Source: Clarias gariepinus
Lineage: Eukaryota
Length of the DNA stretch: 64,000 nt
Reading direction: 5' to 3'
Assembly (NCBI RefSeq): GCF_024256425.1
Contig: NC_071115.1
Location: 12,462,746-12,526,745, forward strand
Shown here one piece after another: positions 3,530-60,509 of this stretch (within the stretch, counting starts at the first letter, position 1; the number at the start of each line of letters is the position of its first letter). The notes beneath the pieces are model-generated. The model had not been told where the DNA came from, did not search any database, and saw only the letters and a program-made list of their open reading frames with translations. The position numbers and the translations under genes are program-made.

Positions 3530-3546
3530 ACAACAATAACAAGAGT
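3496..3546. repeat. (TTA)n followed by (AAC/AAT)n compound microsatellite
   Basis: About 11 ttattatta... units, then aacaacaataacaag. Confidence 0.9.
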
Positions 3547-14015: not shown

Positions 14016-14099
14016 CATGGTGGGTCATTCTGTGGTTTCGATAGCGATATTTCTGAATAAACCCGATATTACACTCGCTACACCAGTAAGGCCTCTCAC
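14016..14099 (-). CDS. Locus A exon encoding one C2H2 finger, (G)ERPYWCSECNIGFIQKYRYRNHRMTHH(G). It is 84 nt with phase 1 at both ends.
   Basis: Acceptor ttttgcttttctag|GT at 14100 and donor CATG|GTGAGT at 14015. Paralog at 27848-27931 has identical length and phase. Confidence 0.65.
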
Positions 14100-18150: not shown

Positions 18151-18745
18151 TTGTGGACATATTGTACAACTTTTCCTGCTCTGCATACAGCGCACAAAGT
18201 ACCATGTAAGCAATCAAGGTCACATTCAACAACGCTCGTTCAAGTTCATCTGAGACATGTATGAAGCTTATAGGTTTAGGTTTAGTTCATTTATAAAGCA
18301 CATTTGTAACAGCCGCGAGACTGACCAAAGTGCTGTACCTCCACATCAACACATCATAAAAAGGCTAAAAGTACACGATACACACAAAAACTACATACTA
18401 GGCACAGTAGAGCCTAGTGGGCCAGGGAAAACAGATGGGTTTTTAAAAGGGATTTAATGGTCAAACTAGGAGCCATTCGGATATCAAATGGCAAGTCATT
18501 CCAAAGACGAGGCAGAAGCTTTAGAGTCTCAGCAGAACGTTAAAATGCATTTTTGCATGGAACAGGGGTTGTGGAATTTGACCCTGATTAATTTCATTGT
18601 ACTTGCTTGTAGTGTACAGAGCAGGAAATTTAGAACTACAAAGACCTATACTACTGTATTTACAGTATATTCACCTCAAAGTTAGACTCTGACTATCCCT
18701 TTAATCTCATGAAGGTAAAAGATTACATTTTACTTGATGTCTTAC

Positions 18746-19615: not shown

Positions 19616-19852
19616 CTGCAAGGGAAAGTTGTACTAGTTACTTAATACAAGCTTTAAGTTTAAACAGTATCAGTATGTTTTAACAGAAACATTAAAACCA
19701 TTCTGTGATATACTGTAGTTCAACTGGAGAATATATGCAACAAGTTCAGCCTCAACTGAAACTGAGAGAAATTATTATATTATAATTCTTAAATACATTC
19801 CATGGGATTGAGGTCTCAGGTTTTATTTTATAAATAAGCTTGGACTACATAC

Positions 19853-23192: not shown

Positions 23193-23382
23193 CCGCGTTT
23201 ATTTCTGTAAAACTCCATCCCGTGAGCTTTAACATTTCCTTCAGATAGTCGTTCTCTTTGCGGACCCGAGCCGTTTCCTCCTCGTAGTCCTGCATCATCC
23301 TGCTCACGGTGTCGAGAATCTCATTCACCGCCGCCGACAGTCTCTCACTCAGAAACACGTTTAACTCGTCCAATTTAGTCAT
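23193..23382 (-). CDS. Locus A first coding exon, MTKLDELNVFLSERLSAAVNEILDTVSRMMQDYEEETARVRKENDYLKEMLKLTGWSFTEINAG, ending at a G|GTATGA donor in phase 1.
   Basis: ATG at 23382. About 170 nt are more than 97% identical to 3841-4019. Within track ORF 23149..23400. Confidence 0.65.
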
Positions 23383-25462: not shown

Positions 25463-27687
25463 TAATCCATGGCACGGGGGCATTTTAGCGCATAACACGT
25501 GTTACAAAAAAAATTGAGCTCCATTTTTGAAATTTAGTCAACCAATTAAAGGGGTTGTGATCAGTGTTTCTACTGTCGATGCATATCGCCTTTTAAGCCA
25601 ACGCACGAACGCGCAATAATCCTAGACAACTCAATCCAGATATACTAATCATCAACAACAGGTGTGCTCAAAGAACCAACTTATCCGGATAGTAATTAGC
25701 ACGATGATCTCATCTTAGATGTGTTAATTTATCTTGGATTTGTCAAGCGACATACGAAGAACGGACCCCTGGTCCTTGAGGACACCTTGCCTTGCACATA
25801 ATAAACAATAATAAACTTAAGTGGGTGTACTAGATTAGAGAAAACACTAAAATGTGCAGGAAAGGGGGCCTACAGGGCCAGGGTTTGGAAGCACTAATCA
25901 AGGGTACTTGATGGTTTTGTGAGTCTGCTGGTGCCTCTTGAGGTCCTCCAGATAGGAAGAAGCATCTAGATCACATGGGGCAATGGAGTATACTCTCACT
26001 TGAGCATAAAGAGATGCTGTTTGCAATCTACACTCTTTGTCTTTCTACAATCTATGTATAGACTCTCTATATTAAAAATTTTAGTGGATCAACAAATCAT
26101 GTGCATCTCTAACCCTTAGAGGGCTTCCAGCATGGTCATTTATACACCCTGCTTTCTTCCTCTTACACCTTCTTTCTGTTGTATTTTGTCAGCCTTGCTA
26201 AGGGAACCACTCAAGAAATGATGTGTGCTGACATTCATATCACACACCCTTTCTTATTTGTATCAAATGGTTTCGAGTGATTGACACATGGAACGTCTGA
26301 TTAAAAAAATGAACTGTCTGTATTGAAAAAGTACACAATCTACAAAACCAGATGTAGTATTTTCATTGTTTCCTTGGTTCATATTTACAGTGTACACTGG
26401 TAACATCGGTGATAAAGTTTCATGTATGGTACATGCTGTAAGCAGCTACAGTAATACACAATGTTCTCAAAATCCTGTAAATAGAAATGTGTTGCTTTCT
26501 AACTTATAAGCAACAGGTCAAAAAAAGTACTGATACAGACAAAAGTTTTCAGACATAAAAGCAATGGAGGCAACAACTGTTCAGTAAACACTAGGCCAAC
26601 TAGTAGGCGAAATTAAATAATAAAAAATAATAATAAAAAAAAAAAACCTCTCCCAACTGTCTTCTATTTCTGTTTACTTAATTCTCTGCTGTGGCACTGT
26701 AAACTGTTTATTTAATTATGAATTAATCATAATTAAATGAACAGTTTTTGTTCATTTGTACTTGCAAAATGACATTTCTTATTTCCTGTTTGTCAAATGC
26801 ACAAGAAAAGAACAGGAATGATTCCGGAACTGCAAAACTCAATCACATTCACCCGCTGTCCTGTTAACTTTTGTGACACTTAAAATTATGCACAGCAACA
26901 AGCACCTTGATGAGAAAGTGAAATGAACATTTTCCCGTCAGTGTTTTGTAATGATCAAAATATTAGCTTAAGCAATGTTAAAAAAACGGGAAAATAATAC
27001 GTTTCCATTTATAAAAGAAACTACTTTACACAATACACAATATGTAGTAAGATAACGTTCCTAATCTCATACCATTCTATGCTGCAAATGCTTCTTGAGG
27101 CACCATTTCTGAGATAAAGTGTATGATAGCTCTCTGGAGTTCGGTAAATTAATCAGCGTAGAACTTGCTGAAACTTCCTGTGTCTGAAACAGAAGAAGTT
27201 AGACTGCGTTTTAATGTGATAACAATAAAAATGATCAAAGACATTAGAAACCTGGGGGTGACTGAAAGAATTATATACTGTACCAGTGATCTGAAATGCC
27301 TCATACAGATATGTCCAATTTCTTGATATAACCTTATCTTACAGCTAGCACTATGTACAGTATAACATTATAGCTGCACACTGGATATTGTTTTCTTCTA
27401 AATACCACCTCATTCAGTAAAAAAAGTTTGCACCTATCCAGTACTTTAGGTGTTTTTGTGAACATAAGTAGGTTTAAGAGCCTATACAAGTAAAGTGTGT
27501 GTGTATATTTTTCTTACCCCTTTCTGTCATTACAGGTGTTTCATCAGCGTTGCTGGAAAGCTCAGAAGTAGCCGTAGTGCTGTGGTCCAATTGCTGCATG
27601 CAAAACATTACTTTAAAGTGATAGAAATGGTACATTTTCCCAGCATATTGCAATAATTAATACATTAATGAAATAATTAGGTGAAAC

Positions 27688-27776
27688 CTGTAGATGGAGT
27701 TTGTTCTCCACTGGGTTCTCTTCACGTTTTGTGTGCCTTCTTGATGGATCCTTAAATTCGCTTGACTGTGTCTCTC
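27688..27776 (-). CDS. Locus B finger-region exon 3 (acceptor ttcttcag|GA, donor CTACAG|GTTTCA). Paralog of 13841-13938.
   Basis: Splice sites read directly; the peptide ETQSSEFKDPSRRHTKREENPVENKLHLQ is collinear with locus A. Confidence 0.5.
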
Positions 27777-27847: not shown

Positions 27848-27931
27848 CATGGCGCCTCATTCTGTGATTTCGATAGCGATATTTCTGAATGAAGCCTACA
27901 TTACACTCGCTGCACCAGTAAGGCCTTTCAT
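27848..27931 (-). CDS. Locus B C2H2 finger exon, (D)ERPYWCSECNVGFIQKYRYRNHRMRRH(G). It is 84 nt with phase 1 at both ends.
   Basis: Acceptor ttttgtag|AT at 27932 and donor CATG|GTGAGT at 27847. Confidence 0.65.
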
Positions 27932-28026: not shown

Positions 28027-28190
28027 CTGTGTGAGTGTATTCATGTCTGCGAAGGTGATAGGGACTGCAAAAGGTAGCACCGCAATGCTGACAAATGTGC
28101 TGGTTTGAGCTCTGTGATACACTCTGTGCTTCATCCGAAGGGTTGTCCTTTATCTTTATTGGCTTTGTATGGAAACAGACACAAATTACA
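28027..28190 (-). CDS. Locus B exon encoding ...PVICVCFHTKPIKIKDNPSDEAQSVSQSSNQHICQHCGATFCSPYHLRRHEYTHTG. The donor ACAG|GTCAGT is in phase 1. The 5' boundary is approximate.
   Basis: Within track ORF 27968..28201. Paralog of 14232-14397. Confidence 0.5.
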
Positions 28191-28590: not shown

Positions 28591-29277
28591 CCGAGCTCGA
28601 ATACGAGAGCTCCTCCTCCTACATGTATTCCCTAGCACATGTTCTTTCCGGCCGCTTTGATCAGCGACAGCCGTCTTGTCCTCGCTCTTGATGGTTTCAC
28701 TCTGATCATTGGCTGAAAAACTGCAGGTAGTGCTTTCGGGCTCATGATCGATTCCGACCAAGCTAGTGTCTGGAGTCAGATCAGTTTGCGATTCAAGATC
28801 AGCAAGCATTTTTTCACCAACCAACCCCATTTCTTCTGTGTCTGAAACATCAGTGCTAACAGATTCAACATTTGTTTTTTCCCATTTGGAAGTACATCTA
28901 TTCGAATGAGCAGATCTTGCTTGATTAGCTGGTAGAAGCTCTTCACTTGAAGGAATACACATATCCACATCTTTGTGCAAAAGGTTTCCCTTGGTCTGAA
29001 GCAGATCCAGCAGCTGTTTCCTTTCCTTCGACTTCTTGTCATAACTAAGAGCCTTGGCCACCTCTGGTTCTTTAGCATGTGCCGATAGAAGATGCCGTTT
29101 CATTTGGAGGGATGATTTCCTACAATATAAGCAGTAATGTCTTTTCTTCAGCTTTAATTTGGATTTTCCTTTCCTGGTTTTTAAACTCTTCCAGACATCA
29201 GCTATTTGTAAACCGCACTTCATCTCAGGAGCTTGGGAAGAAACCGGTGATGAATTTTTTCCTTCGGGTGATGTCTG
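28591..29277 (-). CDS. Locus B large exon, 229 aa. Contains CLYCRKSSLQMKRHLLSAH and AKEPEVAKALSYDKKSKERKQLLDLLQTKGNLLHKD and ends RRRSSRIRAR|GTAAAC.
   Basis: Acceptor ccccatag|CAG at 29278 and donor CGG|GTAAAC at 28590. About 93% nucleotide identity to 19381-19590 over ~200 bp. Confidence 0.6.
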
Positions 29278-33564: not shown

Positions 33565-35202
33565 CTGTAAGGGGTCACTTTGTCGTCTTCTCTTTGTGTC
33601 CCTGCTTCGACTCTCCCCTCTCCTCTTTAATGCTGTTTTGTAATTTAAGTCAAGAGGTTTCATTTTGCTGTTTTGACCAGTAGTACATTTACCACCCTCT
33701 TCTGTATCATCTCTGACATGACCTTCACATTCAAACTGCTTTTCTGCTGCACTGGATCTTTCTGCATCGGTTGTAACGAACTCATTTGCAGTTAGATAAC
33801 AGCTTGACTCTATGTCAGGGGCTCTATGTTCACCATTTCCAAAAACTTGACTGAAGACATTTTCTGTTTCTGGATTAGCACTTTCCTGTGCATCACTGGT
33901 CAAAACGTTTGCAACTAGACATTTCGTTGACTCTAAATGAGGATTACTTTTGGCAGTCCCCTCTGATACAAGCTCTGGCATCACTGAGGCAGTCTGCTCT
34001 GGTTCTGAATTAAAGCTAAGACTTTGCTCAAAGTCCACACTTATACTTGTTGATGTGTTAGTCCAGTCTGATTTAAGATTAGTTGATGGTTGTGAATTAC
34101 TGCTGCCAGTATGTATAGGGCTCAATGATTCTTGAGGAGCAACATGTTTTTTTCTGCAATCTAATGTAGAAGAACTCTGGCAATCTTGATTAGTCTTTAG
34201 TTGTAGATTGTGGCTCCCAATGTCTGGACTGCAAGTTTTCAAATTAAAAATCTCCAAATCTTTTTCTACAATGGCTTTTGTTCTAATAAGGGGAAATGTA
34301 AAATTTTGATTTTCAACAAGAACTTCCTGTACTGTGCTGGGGCAAGACTCCTGCCCTGGAGTGTCAGTATACTCTATTGCGCTGTCAAAAGATTCTATAG
34401 TGAGTGGTCCAGAAGATTCAAGATTCATCATTGCCGAGCTGTTCCCAGTGAATAAAATGGACCCTTGATCAGGGATCGGGTTTACCTCAGCACTGAGAGT
34501 GCCTGAAACAGCAGAAAGTGAATATAAATAGTGTGTAGTGTGGTATTGAGCTTTAGGTGAAGGAAGATTCTCAGACTCTGGAATGACTTGTTGGACAGAA
34601 CCGTGGAAGGTATCTTTGACAAGATTCCCAGATTCTGGATTGGAGGTTTTCTGCACTAAACTTTGCCTTGATCTTGGGCTAATGTTGGGAAGATCTGTAC
34701 TGCTCCCAGGTTCAGGCAGAACAGACACTTTTAATTGTTTCTGCTTACATATTAGAGCATGTTTCCAAAACTGCTTTCTTTGATAATATCCCTGGCAAAA
34801 AATACAATGGACGAGGTCGTCGTCTTTTTTGTTCCTAGGAGTGTAATCGTTTTTCAGTTTTTTGTTACTGCAAAGAAGGATCAAACGCCTCTTCCTTTCT
34901 TCTAAAGTATTGCTAAAATGCAAAGCTTCCATAACTTTAGGTTCCTTCGGGTGATCATGCATGAGATGCAGTTCGATTTTTTCACAAGCTTTCCCACAAT
35001 AACAACAGTGCAGAGTTCTTGTACCTTTCTTTGATTTTCTGTCAACAGTCTTTAAGTCTGCTCTGGAACGTCGACTAGTTGCACTGTGTGTGTCTGGGCA
35101 ACATCCTGATAACCTTTCTGTACTGACATTAATCAGTGTCGAGTCGCTTTTTCCTGAGATTTCAGAGTTGTCTGTTGAATCCACACTACCTACTTCTGAT
35201 GT
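33565..35202 (-). CDS. Gene C large exon d, ~546 aa. It is serine/threonine-rich, carries CCYCGKACEKIELHLMHDH and CIFCQGYYQRKQFWKHALICKQ (the same paired-motif architecture as loci A and B), and ends RRRQSDPLQ|GTACAC.
   Basis: Within track ORF 33523..35262. The donor is at 33564. The acceptor is uncertain: either AAG at 35203 or CAG at 35196 with a different phase. Confidence 0.5.
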
Positions 35203-35441
35203 CTTCAGAAAGGGAAGGTTTAAAAGAATACAACAACAACAAAAAAAAAATGTATGGATCAATATTCTTTCTAATTAAATATATACAAGGCTCAAGATAT
35301 ATTACTTAAAAGAGTTATGACAAATTAAGCCCAGGTCACTGTTACAATTGTCATCCTATATGACCACATATTGAACAATGACAACTATTTTAAAATTTTG
35401 CTAGTTTTTGTAGCACTCTTTCCTTTGTCAGAGTCGCATAC

Positions 35442-36794
35442 CTGAACTTGGACAACTGGTTGTTTAAGCTTAATTTCATTATTCTTGACCCTCTTCTTTA
35501 CTGTCTTGTAGGCGTTTGACTTCTGGTGGGTCCCCGCAGACAAAGAGTGCACCTTCACGTGCTGTGTTAAGGAGGCCTCACTGGCAAACGTTAAACCACA
35601 TGCCAAACATGTGAACCACTTCTTCTGCCCTGAGGAACTTGGTTCATCTGTTTGTTGCACAGAAGTAGCTGCCATGTCATCTTGGTTAACCAGGGTCCCA
35701 TCAAGGGCAGTTTGTTCACCGGTCTTTCCTAACATAAACGTTATATCGGAGTCAGAGTCACTAGGTTTATAAGAGGAGCTAGGGACGGATCCGGCATCAC
35801 CCATCCCTTCATGTACTGGTGGAGATATTTTCAAGGTTTGCTTTCTTTTCTTTTCATCTGGGTTAATGGACACATTTGCCCATTCATCATCATCACTAAC
35901 ATCCGAGAGGACCATATATCCCGACTCGGTATGAGATACTTGGCATATGGTACTTGATTCAGTGGGGACAATTTCTGGAACTGTTTTCAGTGCTAGGTCA
36001 GTGGAATGGGGTGGAATATTTTTAGCTTTCACAATATCAAGAAACCTTGAATTCCCTTGAGTAGGAACTTGGCCTCCTGACTGTTGAGATTCTAGATCAG
36101 TTTCCAGATGTTCTGGGTCATGTTGCACCTTGTGCTGCTTTACATCAAACAAAGAACACTCTTTGCTTTCTACGTGACTCTCCTTTTGGCACATTTCAGA
36201 CTTCCTGTGTTTTGGAGAGTCAGAGGACTGCTGGTCCTGTATACTGACAAGCAACTTTTCAGAGCAGTTGTTATTTTCATGATATTTATAAACTGAACCT
36301 ATTTTAACCCCAAGATCTGGAGGATGATCTGTCTCAGCTAATGTGTTTTGGCTGGCACAAGGTTCCGAGTTTTCAAGTAACTTTTGAGGAAGATGACTCT
36401 TCACCTCCCCGCCTGTAGCAGCATAATTCATTTCTAACCCAAGCATCTCAATGTCACTATTTTCCACAACTACTGCTTTACAGTCACCCTTTTCAGATGA
36501 TGCAGAGTGGCTGGACTCAGCTACAACTGGATCTAGAACAATTCTAGGCTGCAAACTGAAATTACTGTCTGATTTTGAATCGGTTCTTGTAACAGTTGTG
36601 CTGTGGATGGTAGCAGCAGCAGATGACTGCAGAGGAAGGAGGCTGAATTTTCTGCCAGTGCAAACTGATTGAGGCGGAACGGTTTCCATAGGCTCTGTAG
36701 TGCTTGCATGGTCTTGCGACACGGCAGAAGTCTGACTCCTAGTCACTTCGTTTTCTCCATCCTTCCCCTTTGCATCATTGCCTTCTACTGCAGG
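35442..36794 (-). CDS. Gene C large exon c, 451 aa. It is low-complexity and acidic, with one C2H2 finger near the C-terminus (FTCLACGLTFASEASLTQHVKVH).
   Basis: Acceptor tttcctccctgcag|CCT at 36795 and donor GTTCAG|GTATGC at 35441. Within track ORF 35385..36851. Confidence 0.6.
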
Positions 36795-37153
36795 CTGCAG
36801 GGAGGAAAGTCGGCAATTAGTAATTCTCAATGAGAGGAGACTATTAGCCACATACCACCTTAGAATAGGACTAAAGTGGTATTTAGTTTATTATGTGTAA
36901 TAAAAAAAAAAAAAAGAAAAAAAAGACAAGGAAAGAACAAAGTGTCATATCAAGGTACATGTGCAGGAAAAAACAGTCCTTTATTGAGAACGTATATTTG
37001 CAAAATGTTTGCGTTATGACCCAAGATCCAAGAGTGACAATTTTATTTTAGCAAGTGTAGTCTTTGTTTCCTTGAAACAAAATTCTAGCATTTCATATGA
37101 TTTAGTTTATGAGGCTTGTTTTTTCAGCTACTCTAACCACAATTTAAATGACT

Positions 37154-37155
<2 letters not shown>

Positions 37156-37189
<34 letters not shown>
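37156..37189. repeat. (GT)n microsatellite
   Basis: gtgtgt... run of about 17 units. Confidence 0.95.
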
Positions 37190-37191
<2 letters not shown>

Positions 37192-37706
37192 CAAAGGCCT
37201 GCTATATTCTGGAACAAATACATTCCAACAAATAAATCCATGAAATCACTGCAATTAATATTTTTTTTTAAACAAACAAAAGCAGATTTTTTTTTTTCCA
37301 CTTCAAGAGCTCAACATTTTTTTGTACTGCAACAAGATCAAGAATAAATGAAAAAGCAAGAGTTTAAAAAGAGAGTCATCTACATCAAACTACTCGATAC
37401 AGCATCGCTGCGTGCAGGCATTCGCACTCTGGGTCCTAATGAGTCCTGTTAGTATTCTGTTACTTTTATAAAAAGAACTGTGGAAATGTATACTTCTAAA
37501 ACTGTAATTAAAATAATTTCCATTAACACTGCAATAAAATGAACAAGCCCATTTGTCTGGGAGTGCACACCTTCGACAAGTTAACAATTTATTTATTTAC
37601 AAAGGAAGGAGAAAAAGGAGAAAAAAAGAAAACAAAGTTTTGAATCAGGTCAGTCTGACATGCAGTCTTGTGTTGTCATCATGGGTTTCAGCATGTATTT
37701 TCCTAC

Positions 37707-37937
37707 CTCCTGTTTGTCTGTATCTGGCACTCTGGGTCTTGTCGGGTCACTGTAAAACTGTTCTTTACGTTGTCGGTAGGAGTACGGCTTCTCGCCTGAG
37801 TGGATCTGCATGTGCACCATTAGCCGCATTGCTCGTGGAAAGACTTTATCGCAAAAGGGACACGGAAACGATGCTTTACCACCCTCTTTTCCTTTCTGAC
37901 CTTTGGAATCCTCCGTAGATGAACCCTGTTGCGTTGT
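37707..37937 (-). CDS. Gene C exon b, TTQQGSSTEDSKGQKGKEGGKASFPCPFCDKVFPRAMRLMVHMQIHSGEKPYSYRQRKEQFYSD... It is a single C2H2 finger exon and a paralog of gene D exon 2.
   Basis: Strong acceptor tttcatccccccttccag|ACA at 37938 and donor CAGGAG|GTAGGA at 37706. Confidence 0.6.
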
Positions 37938-38023: not shown

Positions 38024-38227
38024 CTGCCCATCACTTTTCAATGCATCGTCATTTGCTTTTTGGGGCAAGGCCAGCAGTGCTTTCCTGTGGCCAAGCATGT
38101 GCAAGCTTAACCAGTTTTTTCTAGCATAAACCTTGCCGCAGTCTTTGCAGACACATCGGCCACGAGTTGCACCGTCAGAATCTTTGCTTTTCTCTGCAGC
38201 TGTCTGGACATCAGAAGAGTTATCCAT
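38024..38227 (-). CDS. Gene C first coding exon, MDNSSDVQTAAEKSKDSDGATRGRCVCKDCGKVYARKNWLSLHMLGHRKALLALPQKANDDALKSDGQ (one C2H2 finger), with donor CAG|GTATTT.
   Basis: ATG at 38227-38225 and donor GT at 38023-38022. Within track ORF 37997..38302. Confidence 0.55.
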
Positions 38228-38300
38228 AGTCTTCAGCAGCTTAAAATAGTAGAAAGAAAAATTTTGATTAAATTTGATATTTGGATTAATTATAATTGGC

Positions 38301-40187: not shown

Positions 40188-41006
40188 TTAAAAAAGAGGA
40201 AAACTCAATCTTTTCTTTCTAAGAAGTTCGTTAATTCTATCTCTTATTTGCTTCTTGTTGCGGGCTGTGGGTTGGAATTTCTTAGCAACAGCATTAGAAA
40301 TTGCTTGACGCAGATTGGAAGGCAGTGCGTTTTTTCCCCTGGAACCATCATAGTTCACCGAACCTGCCCATTTCTGGTAAACATTGTGTGGAACCAACCT
40401 TTTAAATAAATCAACAGCAAATCGATCTACCCTTGGTCTGCCATCTGGTCCAGCTGAATTCAGATATAGTTCTTTCTCTTGCTCGATGGACACATGATTT
40501 AAAGTCACATCAGGTATGATCACGCCATGTATGAGAGACCGGCGTACAGGATGATGAGAGCGCGAAGCGTTTCTTGGTGTTTCAGGCAATCTCGAACAGA
40601 AGGATGAAACTGCTGAATGTTCTTGTGAGTTAGGCATTAAATGTTCCAGAACTGGTGAACTGTGAAAGTCGAGTATCGAACCAGTTGCCATCTGTAGGTT
40701 AGCAACATTTTCCGGATCAATCTCTACTTTAACGGCATGGTCGGTCAGAGCTGTTGAGGCGGCTGGTGGAAAGCCAAAATCTTCATCGTCCAAGCGTCCG
40801 ATGGGTGGTGTGGAATGGTCTCCAGCGGGGTCATGGATTAGAGCCTGATCTGCTGTTGGCAGATGTGACGTTATCTTCTCCTTCGAACCTGCTTCCAAGC
40901 CACTAACCAATCTGGCCTCCAAATTCAGACGGCTACGTGTCACAGCCCGTAACTGCTCCTTTGAACTGCTGGCTACAGCGAGGTGCCGACGGGTGATCAT
41001 TGTAGC
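40188..41006 (-). CDS. Terminal coding exon (includes the stop codon) encoding a ~272-aa segment with a C-terminal BEN-like domain (...RFAVDLFKRLVPHNVYQKWAGSVNYDGSRGKNALPSNLRQAISNAVAKKF...).
   Basis: Acceptor ttttatag|GCT at 41007-41010. Track ORF 40188..41000. The BEN assignment is from remembered family features (an aLLxxlF block, tG..g..K.aL(D/P)...v.aI motif); no database search was run. Confidence 0.5.
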   Translation of the reverse strand, partial: ATMITRRHLAVASSSKEQLRAVTRSRLNLEARLVSGLEAGSKEKITSHLPTADQALIHDPAGDHSTPPIGRLDDEDFGFPPAASTALTDHAVKVEIDPENVANLQMATGSILDFHSSPVLEHLMPNSQEHSAVSSFCSRLPETPRNASRSHHPVRRSLIHGVIIPDVTLNHVSIEQEKELYLNSAGPDGRPRVDRFAVDLFKRLVPHNVYQKWAGSVNYDGSRGKNALPSNLRQAISNAVAKKFQPTARNKKQIRDRINELLRKKRLSFPLF

Positions 41007-45890: not shown

Positions 45891-46466
45891 CACTTCATTT
45901 GTAAGCTGGCTTTTTTTCTTCTTTTTGTCATCAAGACCATCCTGCAGCCCCAAATTCTTCTTCTGCTTCTTTTGCTTCTTTTCCACAATATTTGTCTCAA
46001 TGAGGCTCTGTTCTCCTTCTTTGTTGTCATTTTGTCCAAACTCTTTCATCAGCATTAGCTGCCTCCTGTTCTCCTCCACAATCCTCTCTCTTTTATGCAT
46101 CTTCTTGTGGGACTTCAACCAACCGGCCAGCAGATACACCTTGCCACACTCTCTGCATGGAAATCTCTTTCTAGACTTTTTGACTCCTTTTTTTACCGAA
46201 GATTCCTCAGGGACTGGGTTCGGTTCCTCTGGGACTTTGTTGGCAACGGTTTCAGTTTCATTACTGATGGTTTCAGTTTCGTTATCAATAGAGTTATTAG
46301 TGATAATTATTTTGGTTTCTGCGTTTGTTTTTAACTCCATAGTTATGCTTTGAGACGCAGCAGGTTCGTTTTTGGGTTGCTCGTTGACTGTTTCTGAAGT
46401 TTTAGTTTCTTCTAATGGCTGTTCAGCGATTTTGTTTTGCTCATTGCCACCCTCTGATGATGATGG
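45891..46466 (-). CDS. Gene D exon 6, 192 aa, with one C2H2 finger (FPCRECGKVYLLAGWLKSHKKMH) and a K/E-rich tail.
   Basis: Acceptor tgtttag|CCA at 46467 and donor GAAGTG|GTATGT at 45890. Phase 0 at both ends. Track ORF 45837..46340. Confidence 0.65.
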
Positions 46467-47241
46467 CTAAACAAGTTTACAGAAATGGGAAGAGAAATTG
46501 ATTTTAAAATGTTAGTGTACTTTTGTGTAATGGTGGGCGAAAGAACTATTTGGACATTATTGATTTTATTTAATATACTTGTAGTACAGATATCAACTTC
46601 ATATTTACATAACGTCTTTGAGATTGTACTTTTAAACATAAACCAAAAAAGAATGTATTCATAAGCAAAAACTAAGTACACACAAATAAAAAATATATTT
46701 GTGTACACATTATATGACCAAAAGTTTATGGACATCTGACCATCAGACTACTATATGGTTGAAAAAAACTTTGGGCACAAAAATGAATGCATACAATTGT
46801 ACAAATCATCACTGTATACTCTAGCATTTCAACATTCCTTCCTTAAAACTAGGAGGTGACCAACTGGACCAACCCACTGTACACCTTTTGGAATGAAGTG
46901 GAATGCACCCCCTGACCTCCTCACCCGAAATCAGCAACTGACCTCACTAATGTTTTTTGTGGCTGAAGGACCACAAATGTGCAGAGCTACAATTTAAAAA
47001 CCCTGAATGAGTAATGCTTTTTAAAAAAAAAAAATCAGGAACAGAAAATTACATTTATGATGGTCAGGTGTCCACTACCTTTTGTCCATGTTCTGCGTGA
47101 TGTACATGTAAAATGTACTAGAAATCTTAAGCTTTATTTACTCACAACAGGTTGGTACTGTATATAGATTACAGTCCGTAAAAGAGCTGGTCAATATATG
47201 CATATACTGTATGATTTAACAATAAAAACAAACAAACTAAC

Positions 47242-47451
47242 CTTGGTAATGACACGCCGAGTCCTTCTCTTAGTCGAATTGGGCAATATGGCGTCAGAAT
47301 GAATGTCACTTTTTTGTTGGTTAAGTGTATGACTCCGAATATGTGGTGCAAGCCACCCTTCACGAGCAAAAACCTTATCACAGTACGGGCAAGCAAAGAT
47401 TTTCTTTAATACGTGAACTTTGCTGCTTTCAGTGGTTTCCTCTTTCTTCGG
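47242..47451 (-). CDS. Gene D exon 5, 70 aa, a single C2H2 finger (FACPYCDKVFAREGWLAPHIRSH).
   Basis: Acceptor (t)14ctatatag|CCG at 47452 and donor ACCAAG|GTTAGT at 47241. Phase 0 at both ends. Confidence 0.7.
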
Positions 47452-48034
47452 CTATATAGAAAAAAAAAAAAAGAAAAGTCAATAATCAGAAAGCATTCAG
47501 TCTATAGAGAAACTTACCCCAAAAAGCAGATAAGTAATGAACAGCATGTTTCAACCTACATTTGAAGGTGATCTATTATGCAAAATTCACTTTTAAGTCG
47601 TTTTTATATAGAGTGGAATCTTGGGAGTACGAGCATAATTCATTCTCGAAGCGGGCTCGTGTTTCAAAATACTCATAAACCAAATTGAATTTTTCCATAA
47701 GAAATAATGGAAACTCAAATTATTTGTTCCACAGCCCCAAAAAAATAATGCATAAAAATAATTAACACAAAATATGAAATAAAAATAAAACAAATTAACC
47801 TGCACTTTATGTTTAAAAAAAAAGTAAAAATAAATCCTGATTTTCATAAACGCACACACACAATAGAAACACTGTTTTATCGGAAAATAAAAAAAATCTC
47901 TCTAATGACACTCAATTGAGTGACACACTAATAAAATCACAGGTGTAAAGTTAAAATGAAACCAATTAACCTGCACTTTACCTTTGAAAAGAATCACGAC
48001 AGGGCAGTGTTTCTGTGTAGAGCAGAGAGAATAA

Positions 48035-48058
48035 GTGTGTGTGTGTGTGTGTGTGTGT
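48035..48058. repeat. (GT)n microsatellite
   Basis: gtgtgt... run. Confidence 0.9.
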
Positions 48059-48783
48059 CTGTGAAGCAAAAGTAGGAGGGGTCTGTGTGGGTGTGTGTGA
48101 CATGGTGTCCAATGACGCATGCATACACAGATACAAAGAGCAGGCTGATACAGAGAGAAAAAATGGATTTTTAACATCTCTAATGAGACTTGCTTTTGCT
48201 TTACACACACGCTGTATACACGCATTCAGACACAAAATAAAACATGTTTTACGCGCACACACATGGTATAGTAAATAGTACGCATGTGCAATTAAGTAAG
48301 TGACTAAGACTCAGCAGGGGAAACAATTACCCACAATTTCGCAGCGCAAGAGAGAGAAAAACCGTTGGCTTAGTTGTGATCATGTGATGTTCGGCATCAA
48401 AACAAGAAGCGCATGCGTGATAGATGACAAAAAAAGTATAAAAAATATTTGCTCGTCTTGTGGAACACTCGCAAACTGCGTTACTCGCAATCCGAGGTTT
48501 CACTGTATTTCGGTATGTGCAAAACAAAATGTTAAGAATCATTTCCTGCTTTTGCTCCTTTTTTTTGCATTTTTGTATTGATCAAGCTTTACTGATTCAT
48601 TTAGATTTTCACTCTAATGTGACCTTATATGAGGGGAACCAGCCTATTTCAGTTGAAGCATTAACACAAAATAATAACCGTTAGCAGGATGATAATTATA
48701 AAGATATTTAGGAGACATTAAATGAAAGGAACACTGCTTCCAAACATTTTATTAATTTGTTATTTCTTTTGTTTATGCAGTAC

Positions 48784-48987
48784 CTCTTCTGAAACCTGGG
48801 GGTCGTCCTTCAGGTTGTTAGTTTGAAGCTGTTTCTTTTTCTGCCGCTTACGTTCTCGTTCATGTGACTTCAAGTGGAAGGTGAGCCAACAAGAGCGAGC
48901 GAAGATCTTCTTGCACTCAGGGCACTGAAACAATCTTTGACCTATCGCTTTTGCCTTTTCCACCTCAGTTTCGTTGTTCCTTATTAC
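48784..48987 (-). CDS. Gene D exon 4, 68 aa, a single C2H2 finger (FQCPECKKIFARSCWLTFHLKSH).
   Basis: Acceptor ttttctttcag|GTA at 48988 and donor GAAGAG|GTACTG at 48783. Phase 0 at both ends. Track ORF 48760..48963. Confidence 0.7.
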
Positions 48988-51360
48988 CTGAAAGAAAAGG
49001 AAGTTAAAAGTGTGTGTGAGGGGTTACCATGGGTTCCAGTTTATATTCTGTTCTTAAATACAATATATGTATTTACCTCTGATACCTCTGATATCTATTT
49101 ACCTCTGACATGTAAATAGGTTTGATTCTGATAAAATTTATAGTAGATTCACAACAGCACTGCAATTGTCAGAAAGTGCAACTTTACTATAAAAGTACTG
49201 TATATTACATATGTATATAGTATGTACAGTATATTTGTTTACTCATTTCTTCAGAAATACAATTCTTATTCTGCAAAAAACAAACAAACATGGAGATGCC
49301 TTCCACACGTTGGCTTTTCCTTATGTAAACAGTAATAAAAATGTAGTGCTGTCATGATTTGCCAGAAGATGATCCCTAATTAGACGTATAAAATCATTTT
49401 TGACGTATAAAACAGACGTATAAAATCATTTTTGTCATTTATAATAATCAAAACTCAATTTAACTAAGCATGCTCTGAAATATGCTGACTTGTAGTGACT
49501 ACACTATACACTAAGTTGCCTCTAATCTGTGACCGCCTCTGTATATTTTTAAACCCAAAGAGTCTAAATGGCAAAGTGACCTTATACATACAATATTTTG
49601 AGTTACAAACAAATTTACCTCTCAAGATATACATACATAAGGTTTGTAAATTTGTAAAATTTGTATTTACACACTTTTGGTTTTTGCACACTTTATTGTA
49701 GCCTGCATTTATTTTAAACTGCATTAAAAGGACATTTCGGTCATTTAACTTTGATTTCTTTTTGTGCAAATACATTAAACATCACAAACACTAATCTCTC
49801 ATCGAAAAGTATTCTAGGTCAATTCACTTGAGACTAGGCTCAACTGCATTAAGTATCTTGATTATCTTGTGAAGGTTCTAGAATTTGACTGGATGTGATT
49901 TAGAAAAACGCACACACACCTGTGCGTATGCGGCTGGACAACTTACGGTGCAAATCAAATCAGTAATCAAATCTCAGAGTCTCTGAATTACTTCATCAAT
50001 CAGGTCTTTACTGTAGAGGAATTAGATAGACTGAAGAGACAAAAATCTTTTTCTAGGATGTCCCTTTTAATAGTAATGAAAACCTGTGATTAGAGGCAGA
50101 TGATTTGATCATATTATTTATATTATTTAATAAAACATTATTATTTTATCTCTCACCCTTCACATACATTCATGAGCACTTTATTTGGAACACCCATACA
50201 CCAGCTCACTCACGCAATTATCTAAATCACCTAGTTGTGTGGCAGCTGGAATAATGCATAAAATAATGTATAGACTGGCTTAAGATACTGCTCACACCTG
50301 CCATCAGAACGGCTAATTTCCTGTGATTTAGCATCAATTATTGCTTGAAAGTCACACTGTTACGTCCCAGGACGTATTTCTTATGGTTTATGGTCCTGAT
50401 TTATTTATTTATTTATATGAACTATTTATTTACTTCTATCTGAGTATTATTGCTGACCATGTGCATGCATTCTTGCCCAAAATTTTGCATCTTTTAATGG
50501 CTAATTTCAGCATGATAATGCACAATGTTACAAAGTAAAAGTCGTCACAAACTAGTTTCACAAACAACACAATGTTTTTCAGTGAAAAACAGTCACAGAA
50601 TCCCTCACACTCTACTCCAGGAGAGCACCGCCGGGATGTGGCAGAACAGGGAATTTGCAGTATAAAAGTGCAGCTAAAAAACCTGCATGAATTATGTGAT
50701 GCGATCATGTCCACATGGACCAGAAAATTAAAACATATCCACCATTTTGTGGAATCCATACCATGAAGACCTAAGAGCAAAGGGAGTTAACATAGTGTTC
50801 CTAATAAACTGCTTAATGAGGGTATTTACATATAAATTCCTAAGCAGGTGCAAAACTACATCCTTATGAGACACCATATTTATTTATCACATTCATCGAT
50901 TACATTATAAAATTATGATATGCTTGGAAAGGGTTTTACTAGGACGTTTTTTATATTTTAAGTATAACAAGTAACAACACAAATAACAAGGACAAATAAT
51001 ATAAGAAACCAGGAGGACAAGCTGGCACATCATTCTCTCCATAGTCCACACACTTAATCTTTTGAATAGGAACTCTGAAAAGGAAAACAACCTACAGTAA
51101 ATCAACTACGTCACAGAAGTAGAATAAGTAAAAATTATTGTAAAAGTGAGGTGTGGAGATTCTTACCTTTGTACAGATCTCTTGAAGATGGTGCTGGAAA
51201 TTACTTTTCAGATCAGTTATGTGATTCCTCATCATAGTGTTGCTTTTCTCATTCTCTTATTCTTATTTTAACCATTTATTGTGTAAAAGTGATTAAAAAA
51301 ACACCAATGCTTTTCATTTGTAATACCAAAGTTTAAAAGAACTGTCAAATGCCACTAACA

Positions 51361-51396
51361 ATAATAATAATAATAATAATAATAGTAATAATAATA
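51361..51396. repeat. (AAT)n microsatellite
   Basis: aataataataat... run. Confidence 0.9.
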
Positions 51397-51710
51397 TCAT
51401 CCATTGCTTATCAGTTAATGCCTACATAGTAATCACTAGAGATGGGGGAAATTGAGTTATGAATTGCGATTCTTTTGTGTGTAGAATGACGTACCGCCAC
51501 ACTGACTCCAAAACAGATTTTTAAAAAACAATTTTTCCACTTACAATAGAGATAAACCAGTCGATCGGCCAGTCCTTTTCTAAACATCCTTTTCTTCACC
51601 TGCATCACTATTGTGATGTCTTAATTATCAATTATAATTAAATATGACTAATTTTCATTCTTTTTCATTATAATTATTGTTAATTGCCGCTTTGTCCTCC
51701 AAGCCCTTAC

Positions 51711-52097
51711 CTTTGTAAGATGTGATCCGCTGTCTGCTCTGTCAGTGTCATCCTGTACATTTTGTTCATCTTGATTCAAAATTGGCTTTCTGTGGGTCTT
51801 CATATGGACCGCCAGCCGTGATACATTAGTGAAGGCCTTGTTACACTGCAGGCACTGAGCTGTCTTGGGCTTTTCTCTTCCTTGTTTCGCTTTAAGGCCT
51901 ACAGGCTTGGCAGCACTGGTTTCAGAGAGCTTACTGCTGCTGCTGGTGTGTTCACTGGTTTCATCTGATGCCTCGCTTGGCTCTATTTCAGGGCCAGAGG
52001 GGCCAGCCCTTGATGAGATACCGACGTTAACCCATCCAGTACTCTGCTCTGTCTGCTCCGAGCTGTCAGACAGATCCTCTATGAATTCTCGTGATGT
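51711..52097 (-). CDS. Gene D exon 3, 129 aa. An acidic/serine-rich linker followed by one C2H2 finger (AQCLQCNKAFTNVSRLAVHMKTH).
   Basis: Acceptor cattcccatgtag|ACA at 52098 and donor ACAAAG|GTAAGG at 51710. The length is exactly 387 nt and phase is 0 at both ends. It is not seen as one ORF in the track because it is shorter than the cutoff after splitting. Confidence 0.65.
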
Positions 52098-52358
52098 CTA
52101 CATGGGAATGAAACAATTATTATGTGAATGTTGCACGGACTCAAATAGGGTATCTTTCTGAGATCTACCCCAGATTAGTCCTGGTCTGCCAAGACAATCT
52201 ATTGATGTACTAATTGTTTTTTCACAATGGTTTTTGGTTTTTTATAGCCAAATATTAACACAAAAGATTTGCTTCATGTCACATCAACAATGACTTTACT
52301 GCATTTCATCATTCTCTTGTATGCATTGATGTTAACTGAAGCAAAAATATGCACATAC

Positions 52359-52813
52359 CTTAGAAAGGCCACGTAACTTCTTCTTTCGCTTCTTGTCCCC
52401 GTAAAAGCATGTTTTACGCCTTCGGTACGTATAGGGCCTCTCGGCCGAGTGGACACGCATGTGAAACATCAGTCTCTGCTCCCTTCCAAACACCTTACCA
52501 CAGTCCGGGCAGGCAAAGGACCTCCTCTGGCTCCTGTTTCTTGCCATGGTGGACAGAGTAGGGTCAAAGTCTAGAGGAGCCATATAGCTTTGTGCCGAGT
52601 CCCATACAATACCATCAGGAACACTGGCATCTACAGGGGCACTGGTACCAGGATAAACCATTTCCATATCGGTAGTGCATACTGATGCTGTGAGACTTGT
52701 GTCAGGTCCATATAAAGGGCAATCAGAGGCGTCGACTGGCTCTGTTTTGATAATTAGGGATTCTAGTGTTAGTGTCTCTGTCAGACTGGCCTCACCTGGG
52801 ACAGCAGTGGGAT
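52359..52813 (-). CDS. Gene D exon 2, ~151 aa, with one C2H2 finger (FACPDCGKVFGREQRLMFHMRVHSAERPY) followed by a basic tail.
   Basis: Acceptor ttttgttatttctatgccccacag|AT at 52814 (phase 1, matching the exon 1 donor) and donor TCTAAG|GTATGT at 52358. Track ORF 52332..52835. Confidence 0.7.
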
Positions 52814-55027
52814 CTGTGGGGCATAGAAATAACAAAAGATAAAATAAAACACATTTAAGTCACTTCATGCTCAGCTACTTCTCGTAACAAAAAAACTCTA
52901 GAATTCAAGAATGCCCATGTAATATAAGAGTGTACACTAGGGGGCAATGTTTCGTTTAATAAACCAGAACATACTCGAACAAAATGGTCAAAGAGACAAA
53001 GAGCATTCTTTTGAGCCAAAACAGAGGGTTTGGGGTCTCACTGTAAAAATAATTAAAAGAAGCCAAGATGGGTTTAACTTTGGGTTGAAAATGCAGACAA
53101 GAAAAAAGAAACACTTACAAACAGAATTCCCACCTAAAGTGTATTTATGATTGAAGACTTCCCTCCCTCACACTTGTACATATGCCACAATATCAACAAT
53201 ATGCTGCTTCTCCTTTCTTAATAAAAATTGTATGCACCATTCTCTATTTTATGCACCTCTAACAACCATTCATACTTCTATTTATCTATTTATGTTCAAT
53301 TCAAATGCAGAATTTCCCATTATTTTCAAATGAATCTGCACCCATCATTGCATTTATGATGAAGTCCCTTACTAGATCATTCTTCCACTACCAGGGATTA
53401 AAGTGTCAAGATGAGAGAGAGCTGAACTCAAAGACATCTTTGCATTTTGGCAAACAGACTCAGAGTTGCCAGTCTACAGGCAGGAAATGCACGCAAATTC
53501 AAAATGCTTGTACATAATATAGAGACGCACGAACCTAAAACACATTCAGATTTAAATATTTAATATCCAGTAGTCGTGCCCCTGCTGTCTTACATCACTC
53601 AGAAAGAGAGGCCTGAAGAGCTTCACTTTTTAAACACCAAATTACTCTGGTGTTTAAGATATATTGAAAGTAATCCAACAATAAGAAAAATAAAGAATTA
53701 AATTCATCAAATAATTATAAAAATAATTTGTTAGATGCATACCAAAAGTATTGTTTGAGTTTTAATAAGAATATGTATTTATTTATATTTTAATTTAAAG
53801 AATCACAATAAATGTATAGTTTAGTACAGTTTACATATTTCATTTGGGTCTGTTTGCATTTTGTGCAAGATTTAGTGAAAACCACAGAACCATGGGTCCC
53901 TAGAATGTTATACTAGAAGACCGGAAGCAAAAAGAACAGGGAGACACTTACAGCCGGTGCCAAAAGGTGCCCAATCATTCATTAGGGATAAGTGAGATTT
54001 AATGTTTATTTATTTAGGTACTTCATATTTTTCTTCACTTAAATGTTTTTTCTAAATGTTTTGATGGTTTTAATATGTAAAAATATAATGATAGTGTTAA
54101 TAAGTGGTAATATTGGTAATATTTTTGAGTGTCTGGAATGGATTATCTAAATAGGGAAAATGCGTTATGCAATACGAAACGTCACCTTAAGAATTTGCCC
54201 CTGATTAAATTCGTATGCCGAGGTACCGGTGTATATTTTAATGCCTGAATGTTTAAACATAGATTTAAATATTTATTTAGTTAATATATATATAATTACA
54301 ACATGGCAACACCCCATCAAAATATATTTTTACTTTTATATATAATGGCATGTGCATGAATTATTCTTTATAATAGTTCTGGTTTTGTGCAAATGTAACA
54401 ATGTTATGTTAAATATTATTAAGGTATTTATTTTATAGCTTTACAAACCCTATAAAGCATTTTGTGTGTCTGATTTAATGTAAACTATGTGCGGAAATAT
54501 AGGGCTAAAAACTATTATCCTTGATTGGGGAAACTATCATTAAAGACAAGTTAATAAATGTATTATAACTGCACAATTAATAAGACCGTAAGTTTTCTCC
54601 TAACCGCCAAAAAGGTGGGGGGGACCGTATGAACAAAGGAGTCATGTGATTCATGGAAAAGAACCGACTCACATGAACGATTCAAATCCGACACCGTTAT
54701 TTAGAAGCTAAAACGACACAACAACAAGACGATATCACGTCGTTACCATTGGCTTCAGGAACAATGTAATTAAACGTTTTTCGTGACTCTGAGTGGAATA
54801 GTGCAGGTTATAGTGTGCGTTAGATGAGGGCCGGCGCGCATTGTGCAAAAGCCGGACTGTAACCCCTCGTGCAGAAACGAGCTAATAATAGCAGAAAGAG
54901 CTAGCTTAACGCTGGCTAAACATTAAAATAATAATTCTGTAACAATTAGGGAGCGCGCTGGTGGTTTATGTCACAGGCTGAGCTTGTAAAGGGAGACAAA
55001 ACGCCGAGCTGGCCCCCTGCTCACTAC

Positions 55028-55217
55028 CTGGCCAGTCGGTCGGGTTTTCGCCCTCCATCCAGCGGAGCCTCCGTCTGAGCACCTCGTTCTCTTTGCGCGC
55101 TCGCACCGTCTCCTCTTCATACTCCAGCACCGTGCCGCCCACCATCTCCATGATCTGCTCCACCGCCGCCATCAGCCGCTCATTCAGAGCGCGGTGCAAC
55201 AGCTGCAGCTTGGTCAT
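55028..55217 (-). CDS. Gene D first coding exon, MTKLQLLHRALNERLMAAVEQIMEMVGGTVLEYEEETVRARKENEVLRRRLRWMEGENPTDWPG, ending at donor CAG|GTAGTG in phase 1.
   Basis: ATG at 55217. It is homologous in sequence and structure to the exons at 3824-4019 and 23193-23382. Track ORF 54966..55217. Confidence 0.65.
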
Positions 55218-55442
55218 GTTGGGCTCCAGAATTAACCAGAACCTGATTTAAAGCAGGATTTAATAATAACTAGCTAGCTATCGTCGCGTTAGCGCAGCTC
55301 TTCTTCCTACGGCAGTGTAGCGCTCACCTACTGTGTGCAATGTCGGGATCTTTACTGACCCCTAGCGGACGGAGCGCAGTCAACGTGCAGCAAAAATACA
55401 GTACAGTACAGGGTGGCACAAACCTCTCCATAATACAGGAAA

Positions 55443-59090: not shown

Positions 59091-59550
59091 AGCACATTTA
59101 ATCAAATATTTGGTTTGCTCTACATATAATTTTGACCCTGTGTTGATTTTAGAAAATTCAAAAATGAGGTGCATGCACTAAATTCTTTTAATTAAAGAGC
59201 TGTTAATTAAACAAGTCTGTTGTAGAATCATTCTGTTCCAGAAAAAGACACTGATGTGAAACTGATGTTCATAATGAGTGTATGTAAACTTCTGATCACA
59301 AATGTAAATTGATATTTTATCTAAAATTCACAAAAAGCAAAAGCAAAAAAAAAAAAAAAAGATAATTTTTTATTAATTGTAATTAGATAATACATACGGC
59401 AGTCCGACTTTCCTTCATGACTACAGAGTCAAACTGTGAGCTTTTGCTAAATTTAATAGTATTTATAAATCAGGCGGTTTAATACTTCGGAACCTCAGGT
59501 CGATAAGAGACGAGTGTAGTCCACGGTTGATTCCAAAAGCCAACTTGCTA

Positions 59551-60509
59551 ATGACTGTCATTGTTAAAGTGCTGCTTTACCAGGTGAAGCTGAAGAGACC
59601 TGGCCACATTAAAATTCTGGTTGCAGAGGGAGCAGTTGTAGCGTTCGTCGTAATGTTTGCGTTGGTGTTTTTTTAGCGTGTGGCTGTCGTTGAAGCTGCG
59701 CTCACAGTGAGCGCACCGGTATGGCCTCTCTCCTGTGTGAATACGAACATGTCGCAGCAGGTTGCTTCTTTGGGTAAAACTCTTGGAGCACCAGGTGCAT
59801 AAGTAGGGCCTCTCCCCAGTGTGTGTGCGCAGGTGGCGCCGAAGGTCAGCTGACTGGTAAAAGCCCTTGCCGCACCAGTTGCAGCCAAAGGCTCGCTCAT
59901 GAGCCTGCTGGTGCACCCGTAGCTTTTTCAGTTCTGTGAATGACTTTTTGCAAAGTGAACATTTATACAGCATTTCATTGTGCGCCTCGTTGTTTAGAGT
60001 CTCTGTGTTCCTCATCTGGTCTGGCTGAGCTGCGTTGTGAAGCTCTTCTCTCTCGGCCACCTCTGGAATTAAGGCATTATGGCTGCCTGTGCTAGGACTG
60101 AGAACGCTCGGGGATTCAGGGCTGTCCAAAGGGTCTGACTCTGCAGGAAGATCAGTGTCTGGTAATGATACAGGAATTTGCTTCTCTTCTGGTTCAAGCT
60201 TCACCCTGTGGAGTTTTACAACAGGTAACAAAAATTTTTGAAAGGTGTCCTCATTTGTGTTTGTAGAAGTAGGGTTTTCTGTGCACAAGTCCTCACTGAA
60301 GGCTTTCACCTCAGGATCTGGGTCTTTTTTGCAAACTGGTATCAGATCTAGTGTCTGTGGAGTCTTTATCCGGACTGAACCTTCACTTGGCACTTGGTTC
60401 TCATTCACTTCTGAAGGTTCTGTTTGTTCTTCCAGGCCTGAACTCCACTCCTGCTGGCCACATGGAGAGATTTCATCTAAGTCAGAATTAGAGGACACAG
60501 GGACTGGAT
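59551..60509 (-). CDS. Terminal exon of a classical poly-C2H2 ZNF gene (gene G) with five tandem fingers joined by TGERPY linkers. Upstream exons lie beyond the window end.
   Basis: Acceptor (t)10actgtgcag|AT at 60510 (phase 1). Fingers YKCSLCKKSF...H, FGCNWCGKGF...H, YLCTWCSKSF...H, YRCAHCERSF...H and YNCSLCNQNF...H. Stop codon at 59548-59550. Track ORF 59548..60498. Confidence 0.8.

Follow-up and report, generated by a model that had tools for sequence, protein, structure and literature searches.

Six exons on the minus strand of a 64,000-nucleotide (nt) stretch of the Clarias gariepinus genome (contig NC_071115.1; the whole stretch is called the window here), lying between positions 45891 and 55217, make up the 5' half of a single protein-coding gene, which has at least 15 exons and extends from approximately 55320 to 27500. 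An initial annotation had treated them as a complete gene of about 10 kb (gene D) and had assigned exons farther downstream to a separate gene C; we found that both sets, all on the minus strand, belong together, and we refer to them jointly as the main gene. Judged by sequence comparison, the main gene is the orthologue of zebrafish zgc:66474/LOC327500. Its product would be a nuclear, multivalent binder of nucleic acid or chromatin, and a single zgc:66474 orthologue with this proposed role, taken as one explanation, is the best account of the locus and a likely one.

Exon structure of the main gene

Splice sites and reading frame of the six exons were read directly from the sequence. The GT donors of exons 1 to 6 were GTAGTG, GTATGT, GTAAGG, GTACTG, GTTAGT, and GTATGT, and exons 2 to 6 were preceded by AG acceptors with polypyrimidine tracts (...ccccacAG, ...ccatgtAG, ...ctttcAG, ...tatatAG, and ...gtttAG, respectively). 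With coding lengths of 190, 455, 387, 204, 210, and 576 nt, the exons joined in phases 0 to 1, 1 to 0, and then four times 0 to 0, and their concatenation yielded 2022 nt, or 674 codons with zero stops. In a six-frame scan, exons 2 to 6 each contained a single C-x2-C-x12-H-x3-H finger, and the Pfam model zf-C2H2 (PF00096) matched the 674-amino-acid product in five stretches, located in exons 2 to 6 (E=1.7e-19; 69.5 bits against a cutoff of 25.2). The product thus belongs to the C2H2 proteins by a finger pattern above the Pfam gathering threshold, and a regular-expression scan counted ten fingers in the full model. The canonical splice sites, the chaining phases, and the single finger in each of exons 2 to 6 had all been recognized in the initial annotation. 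The finger motif given there, CGKV(F/Y)AR..WL..H, was loose: W-L precedes the first histidine in exons 4, 5, and 6, but exons 2 and 3 have R-L at this position (CPDCGKVFGREQRLMFH and CLQCNKAFTNVSRLAVH).

Exon 1 (55028 to 55320, the extent over which the transcript L001 described below aligns) comprises at least 103 nt of 5' untranslated region and the coding sequence from the ATG at 55217 to 55028. Exon 2 (52359 to 52813) carries finger 1, CPDCGKVFGREQRLMFHMRVH, at 52449 to 52511, and past this finger it contains the segment ERPYTYRRRKTCFYGD and then the basic patch KKRKKK. A motif ERPYxYRxRKxxFYxD follows both finger 1 and finger 7 (52395 to 52445 and 37746 to 37796, minus strand) and is conserved across orthologues; from its sequence it looks like a degenerate half-finger, that is, a linker and first strand from which the cysteines have been lost. 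Finger 2, CLQCNKAFTNVSRLAVHMKTH, lies at 51792 to 51854 in exon 3 (51711 to 52097); finger 3, CPECKKIFARSCWLTFHLKSH, at 48862 to 48924 in exon 4 (48784 to 48987); finger 4, CPYCDKVFAREGWLAPHIRSH, at 47329 to 47391 in exon 5 (47242 to 47451); and finger 5, CRECGKVYLLAGWLKSHKKMH, at 46095 to 46157 in exon 6 (45891 to 46466), where it is followed by a long charged helix predicted by AlphaFold2. Exon 6 terminates at its GT donor and has no stop codon, and therefore the gene cannot end at 45891. The exons of gene D are real, but the chain that they form continues past that position.

The continuation begins with exons a and b of the former gene C. Exon 7 (38024 to 38239; 216 nt, phase 0 to 0) carries finger 6, CKDCGKVYARKNWLSLHMLGH, at 38087 to 38149 and is supported by L001, by its splice sites, and by collinear Colossoma and Hemibagrus proteins. 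Exon 8 (37707 to 37937; 231 nt, phase 0 to 0) carries finger 7, CPFCDKVFPRAMRLMVHMQIH, at 37800 to 37862 and is supported by L001 and splice sites. Reading through the exon 8 donor adds a 19-residue tail, EVGKYMLKPMMTTQDCMSD (37650 to 37706, minus strand), with a stop at 37650 to 37652. In Colossoma, isoform X2 (P0002) terminates in the same way, ...EVG.....MMTT.DCMSD, and this conservation suggests an alternative 3' terminus formed by intron retention.

Exons 9 to 13 were located with an Astyanax-like transcript protein (P0016), the catfish Hemibagrus wyckioides zgc:66474 isoform X3 (P0064), and a protein of the knifefish Brachyhypopomus (P0068). Exon 9 (35442 to 36794; 1353 nt, phase 0 to 0) is mostly of low complexity and carries finger 8, CLACGLTFASEASLTQHVKVH, at 35547 to 35609; L001 aligns over 36796 to 36004, P0016 and P0064 match in tblastn, and the donor was read. 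Exon 10 (33565 to 35202; 1638 nt, phase 0 to 0), found by tblastn of P0016 and P0068 and by its splice sites, encodes a CCHH...CCHC module, HCCYCGKACEKIELHLMHDH...HCIFCQGYYQRKQFWKHALIC. It is probably a cassette exon, since Hemibagrus X3 skips it. Exon 11 (28591 to 29277; 687 nt, phase 0 to 0) contains the CCHH module for a second time, with part of it deleted, HYCLYCRKSSLQMKRHLLSAH...; residues 1295 to 1527 of P0064 align to the exon (29277 to 28627), which is bounded by splice sites. The two module copies follow the pattern HxC.YC...H....H and then C..C............H...C; the exon 11 copy has no CCHC half, a loss also seen in Hemibagrus, and P0068 contains both an exon 10-like and an exon 11-like module. 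No Pfam family matched either module in a Pfam scan.

Exon 12 (28027 to 28162; 136 nt, phase 0 to 1) carries finger 9, CQHCGATFCSPYHLRRHEYTH, at 28031 to 28093, and its donor cuts the linker to finger 10, CSECNVGFIQKYRYRNHRMRRH, which lies at 27849 to 27914 in exon 13 (27848 to 27931; 84 nt or 28 codons, phase 1 to 1, GTGAGT donor). Altogether, exons 1 to 13 give 2122 open codons and ten fingers, every finger in its own exon; exons 2 to 11 join in phase 0, and the last pair of fingers is split in phase 1 within the linker. Two further exons without fingers are placed with lower confidence: exon 14 (27688 to 27776; 89 nt, phase 1 to 0), encoding GETQSSEFKDPSRRHTKREENPVENKLHLQ, by its splice sites and by the tails of the Hemibagrus and Brachyhypopomus proteins, which match it weakly in tblastn (E=9e-6), and a probable exon 15 (27518 to 27593; 76 nt) by its splice sites. 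The 3' end of the gene was not found within the model, in which exons were followed to 27518.

Transcript and orthologue evidence for a single gene

Transcript evidence came from a 3448-nt Logan assembly contig (L001, from SRR16816962) of a related species, 83 to 93% identical to the window at the nucleotide level; in a homologue search, its encoded protein was 88% identical to the spliced six-exon product. L001 aligned to the window in nine blocks (55320 to 55028, 52816 to 52359, 52099 to 51711, 48985 to 48784, 47453 to 47252, 46449 to 45891, 38240 to 38024, 37940 to 37707, and 36796 to 36004), which cover exons 1 to 9 and whose breaks coincide, to within 0 to 3 nt, with the boundaries of all six exons of gene D. 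This spliced alignment identifies L001 as a spliced transcript of the related species. Two overlapping open reading frames (ORFs) were called on L001 because of a one-base frameshift in the A-run of exon 5 (approximately 1476 to 1534 of the contig), which is probably an assembly artifact. Two other Logan contigs, L004 and L005, gave no same-species transcript; they are genomic DNA of other species with 73 to 84% identity. The initial annotation had held that a lack of transcript support would speak against its exon chain; the related-species transcript and the annotated orthologues both support the junctions.

The separation of genes C and D did not survive this comparison. It could draw on the 7.6-kb gap between exons 6 and 7, on an independent 270-amino-acid ORF within that gap (40188 to 41000), on a possible internal promoter, and on the paralogy of exon 8 to exon 2, which the initial annotation had seen correctly (60% identity over 45 amino acids, E=4e-19, with the ERPYxYRxRKxxFYxD segment lying inside this stretch). 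However, exon 6 ends at a GT donor and has no stop, neither an N-terminal exon nor a start-codon context lies upstream of 38239, and L001 joins 45891 directly to 38239, so that exon 6 is followed by exons a and b and then by the 1.35-kb exon 9. In tblastn, Colossoma, Hemibagrus, and Brachyhypopomus proteins were collinear across the exons of both supposed genes, and these proteins and that of Salminus span the two parts in the same order. Two genes, with D ending near 45891 and a paralogous C starting upstream of 38239, are therefore very unlikely. Even less credence is due to chance open frames or a decaying pseudogene, for which the sole argument is that the RNA data come from another species: more than 2100 codons are open over 13 exons, all splice sites are canonical, the junctions are backed by the related-species transcript, and the exon structure is kept in zebrafish and milkfish. 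In addition, the ratio of nonsynonymous to synonymous substitution rates (Ka/Ks; Nei-Gojobori method, window versus L001, 1080 aligned codons) is 0.28 for all codons and 0.03 for the fingers. The open frames, the L001 transcript, and these ratios rule out such an origin.

The spliced product matched zgc:66474-type proteins of Cypriniformes and Characiformes, including Danio rerio LOC327500, and the Colossoma protein was 58% identical over 99% of the query. Homologue searches added relatives from Siluriformes, Gymnotiformes, and Chanos. The closest named relatives were catfishes, both for the main gene and for the smaller gene B of the window (see below), and the placement among cyprinids in the initial annotation was therefore incorrect. 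The Hemibagrus X3 protein was collinear with the main gene at 59 to 98% identity per exon. In zebrafish zgc:66474/LOC327500 and its annotated orthologues, for example XP_058267930.1 (Hemibagrus wyckioides), XP_076853071.1 (Brachyhypopomus gauderio), and XP_030649804.1 (Chanos chanos), the N-terminal 63 residues are 89 to 98% identical, and the order and identity of the fingers, the exon logic, the intron phases, the C-terminal CCHH modules, and the terminal finger pair are shared. The fingers corresponded one by one with those of orthologues across seven species. As for gene order, the Hemibagrus orthologues of the main gene and of gene B lie on a contig of equal length (26,508,201 bp), and the five-finger gene found upstream of the main gene adjoins it also in the genomic contig L005 of another species.

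The comparison of orthologous loci that the initial annotation had proposed recovered the same layout. At the zebrafish locus (L002), a 1026-amino-acid isoform is encoded by exons of 190, 488, 375, 177, 222, 540, and 225 nt and a terminal exon, with phases 0 to 1, 1 to 0, and then 0 to 0, as in the main gene, and with one finger in each of exons 2 to 7. The milkfish locus (L003) has 14 fingers in 14 exons, 11 of them in the N-terminal chain, and in 10 of these 11 exons the span of exact match is divisible by three (363, 225, 219, 252, 222, 216, 240, 234, 189, and 246 nt). Finger exons thus number 6 in the mapped zebrafish isoform, 10 in catfish and knifefish, and 14 in milkfish, with spacers that are poorly conserved, and the difference between lineages arises through gain or loss of exons. 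Two single-finger exons of milkfish (L003 positions 3395 to 3579 and 5130 to 5315) are 81% identical in nucleotide sequence, indicating a duplication within the milkfish lineage. Among the finger exons of the window, no nucleotide self-similarity was detected at E<=1e-6, and their duplications are therefore old; at the protein level they resemble one another only around the finger, with the exception of exons 2 and 8. The predicted zebrafish isoforms P0013 and P0022 leave out groups of finger exons while keeping the frame. Downstream in zebrafish (L002 positions 35282 to 37453) there is a zf-BED exon or gene, which is joined to exons 1 to 3 in predicted isoform X11; no equivalent of it was found in the 64-kb window.

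Selection, predicted structure, and possible function

The main gene is under strong purifying selection in its fingers and N-terminal helix, and its spacers evolve quickly. Compared with the ratio for the fingers given above, Ka/Ks was 0.044 in exon 1, 0.36 outside the fingers, and 0.72 in exon 9. Between orthologues of three otophysan orders (catfishes, knifefishes, and characins), the fingers hardly differ, and finger 3 is unchanged in three species, including Hemibagrus and Colossoma. Eight of the nine gaps between fingers measure 46 to 833 residues and are predicted to be disordered, and the canonical 7-residue gap occurs only between fingers 9 and 10. The spacers between fingers 1 and 9 are rich in polar residues and contain 10 to 28% Lys/Arg. 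In an AlphaFold2 model of the 841-amino-acid short isoform, built from an 18-sequence alignment, residues 3 to 55 formed a helix with a predicted local distance difference test score (pLDDT) of 70 to 91, seven separate beta-beta-alpha fingers had block-mean pLDDT values of 62 to 95, and pLDDT was below 50 for 497 of the 841 residues. Of the seven intron positions, six (residues 215, 344, 412, 482, 674, and 746) were within low-confidence segments and the seventh (63/64) was just before one; according to the model, introns 1 to 7 are located within predicted disordered spacers or at their margins.

The 63-amino-acid N-terminal region encoded by exon 1 includes a conserved stretch of about 53 residues that is predicted to form one long helix. 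No Pfam family matched this 63-residue peptide, and a PDB search with it returned one meaningless coiled-coil match (E=1.7). A word-indexed search with the same peptide gave nine short fragments only; an exhaustive search of representatives yielded 249 representative clusters that share the domain at E<=1e-3. The match usually lies at the protein N terminus, named carriers are found among eels, salmonids, and percomorphs, and most sampled carriers have classical tandem C2H2 arrays. Two more copies of the helix exon occur in the window (4019 to 3864 and 23382 to 23227, minus strand). They are 50 to 52% identical to exon 1, and 92% identical to one another over only 214 nt.

These features would best fit a long, mostly disordered nuclear factor of the "beads on a string" type. 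An isolated finger and the Lys/Arg patch beside it would probably bind nucleic acid or chromatin weakly and independently of the other fingers, and several together would provide avidity. The N-terminal helix probably mediates self-association or recruits a cofactor, as do other N-terminal effector domains of zinc-finger proteins. The phase 0 symmetry of the finger exons means that their skipping or duplication leaves the frame intact, which fits the many isoforms predicted in relatives.

Several points weigh against this explanation. The junctions are inferred for Clarias, the transcript support being from another species at 83 to 93% identity; for exons 10 to 15 the evidence consists solely of collinear proteins and consensus splice sites, and the isoforms of relatives are pipeline predictions. 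The AlphaFold2 model is of low confidence overall (mean pLDDT, 51.7; predicted template modeling score, 0.24). DNA, RNA, and protein binding, nuclear localization, and oligomerization are all putative properties of the product, and C2H2 fingers that stand alone frequently bind proteins or RNA instead of DNA.

The last point leads to a protein whose fingers make no DNA contact at all and serve as protein- or RNA-binding modules of a scaffold. Canonical sequence-specific reading of DNA needs tandem fingers with 7-residue linkers, and the isolated fingers of the main gene comply with this only at fingers 9 and 10; disorder is predicted for over half of the short isoform, and WIZ, whose six fingers also stand far apart, is known above all for its partnership with G9a/GLP and cohesin (PMC9063240). 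Nevertheless, the fingers retain the standard hydrophobic core, most have Arg or Lys at helix position -1, and their Lys/Arg-rich flanks are compatible with nucleic-acid contact. The present data do not separate the scaffold from nucleic-acid binding, and we regard it as possible, though unlikely. Less probable still is membership in the rapidly evolving families of transposon-repressing zinc-finger genes (FiNZ or KRAB-like), whose fingers would track transposon change. Such families have been proposed to repress transposons in fish (PMC10547256, PMC11603059), the N-terminal domain is common to many teleost proteins with tandem C2H2 arrays, and the main gene sits among other zinc-finger genes. 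Yet it has an apparent one-to-one orthologue across Ostariophysi with no lineage-specific expansion, the finger Ka/Ks and the near identity of orthologous fingers across orders argue for constraint, the FiNZ design of two exons, one for the domain and one for the array, is not followed (PMC10547256), and KRAB (PF01352) gave no match at E<=1 in a Pfam scan of the 674-amino-acid product. The single orthologous gene encoding a multivalent binder remains the explanation that we prefer.

Neighboring features and known zinc-finger systems

The other features of the window that we noted lie on the minus strand as well. Directly upstream of the main gene is a terminal exon of the classical kind (59548 to 60498), which has five tandem C2H2 fingers with TGERPY linkers. 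The 270-amino-acid ORF in the 7.6-kb intron 6 starts with ATG and is absent from the L001 transcript; it gave only a faint hint of a BEN domain (Pfam E=0.07) and no relative in the PDB. Gene B includes an N-terminal helix exon (23227 to 23382), an ORF with a CCHH...CCHC module (18707 to 19621), and two single-finger exons (14236 to 14298 and 14017 to 14082), and its module and finger exons are paralogous to exons 11 to 13 of the main gene. Its best matches were in Silurus, Hemibagrus, and Tachysurus, and catfish orthologues carry the names ZNF354A and ZNF281; a homologue search with its module copy gave only unnamed or generic zinc-finger annotations. Between the two small genes that carry an N-terminal helix, the region from 6329 to 9164 holds ORFs of a non-long-terminal-repeat retrotransposon, namely, an endonuclease-like ORF (8661 to 9164) and a 616-amino-acid reverse transcriptase ORF with a YADD motif (6329 to 8179).

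The main value of these results is a correct annotation, with one long gene instead of two, in the right orthologue group and fish lineage. The layout is ordinary and conserved, public annotations already contain predicted orthologues from across Ostariophysi, and current understanding is not overturned; the gene family has been predicted but is unstudied, and none of the papers in the library searched by full text mentions zgc:66474. The locus offers a clean case from nature of a zinc-finger protein that evolves by exon modules, in which each finger keeps its identity across distant ostariophysan orders, and it points to a widespread N-terminal domain of teleost zinc-finger proteins that has no Pfam model. 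It is doubtful, but conceivable, that zgc:66474-type genes constitute a distinct, undescribed class of vertebrate zinc-finger genes, defined by the teleost-wide non-Pfam helix, by phase 0 cassette exons with one finger each, and by a chain that evolves through exon duplication and loss (from 6 to 14 fingers). If so, alternative splicing would yield varied combinations of fingers and thereby a binding repertoire programmable by splicing.

TFIIIA is a classical example of one finger per exon, and the fingers of WT1 read DNA jointly as a tandem array with short linkers. In WT1, the four C2H2 fingers are encoded by exons 7 to 10, one per exon and consecutively, and introns separate the finger units as they do in the main gene (PMC11807054). 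The tandem arrangement of WT1 is found in the main gene only for fingers 9 and 10, with their 7-residue linker and phase 1 intron, and the gene therefore does not belong to that type; unlike in WT1, the other eight gaps are long, with an extended spacer in each exon. The layout had been called atypical in the initial annotation, and this is so in comparison with KRAB- and FiNZ-type genes, whose fingers lie in a single exon (PMC10547256, PMC12539977), but it is overstated in view of the WT1 precedent (PMC11807054) and of the conserved, annotated layout across Ostariophysi. Less usual is that the fingers are dispersed also within the protein, with spacers of 46 to 132 residues in the N-terminal chain.

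In FiNZ genes, exon 1 encodes a 28-residue Glu-rich domain and a single further exon carries the tandem finger array; these genes are described as specific to cyprinids (PMC10547256). Both FiNZ genes and the KRAB genes of tetrapods resemble the main gene in having a short conserved N-terminal domain in its own first exon ahead of C2H2 fingers (PMC10547256), but they are highly multiplied and evolve adaptively, whereas the main gene is apparently single copy in the species examined and under purifying selection. Compared with FiNZ as described, the N terminus of the main gene differs in length, architecture, and taxonomic range, which rules out FiNZ identity: the finger exons are separate, the helix of about 53 residues occurs from eels to percomorphs, and the relatives of the gene are catfishes. 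Actinopterygian KRAB-like zinc-finger proteins (Carotti et al.) are defined by an N-terminal KRAB-like domain and by interaction with TRIM33 (PMC9101882, PMC11603059), and, compared by description only, the taxonomic spread and N-terminal position of the helix are compatible with them. The nearest functional analogue is WIZ, which has six unusually widely spaced C2H2 fingers and, like the product of the main gene, is a largely nonglobular protein (PMC9063240). No WIZ-named protein was among the 53 homologue matches of the spliced product, and no direct comparison with WIZ was run; the N-terminal helix domain of the main gene is not a described feature of WIZ.

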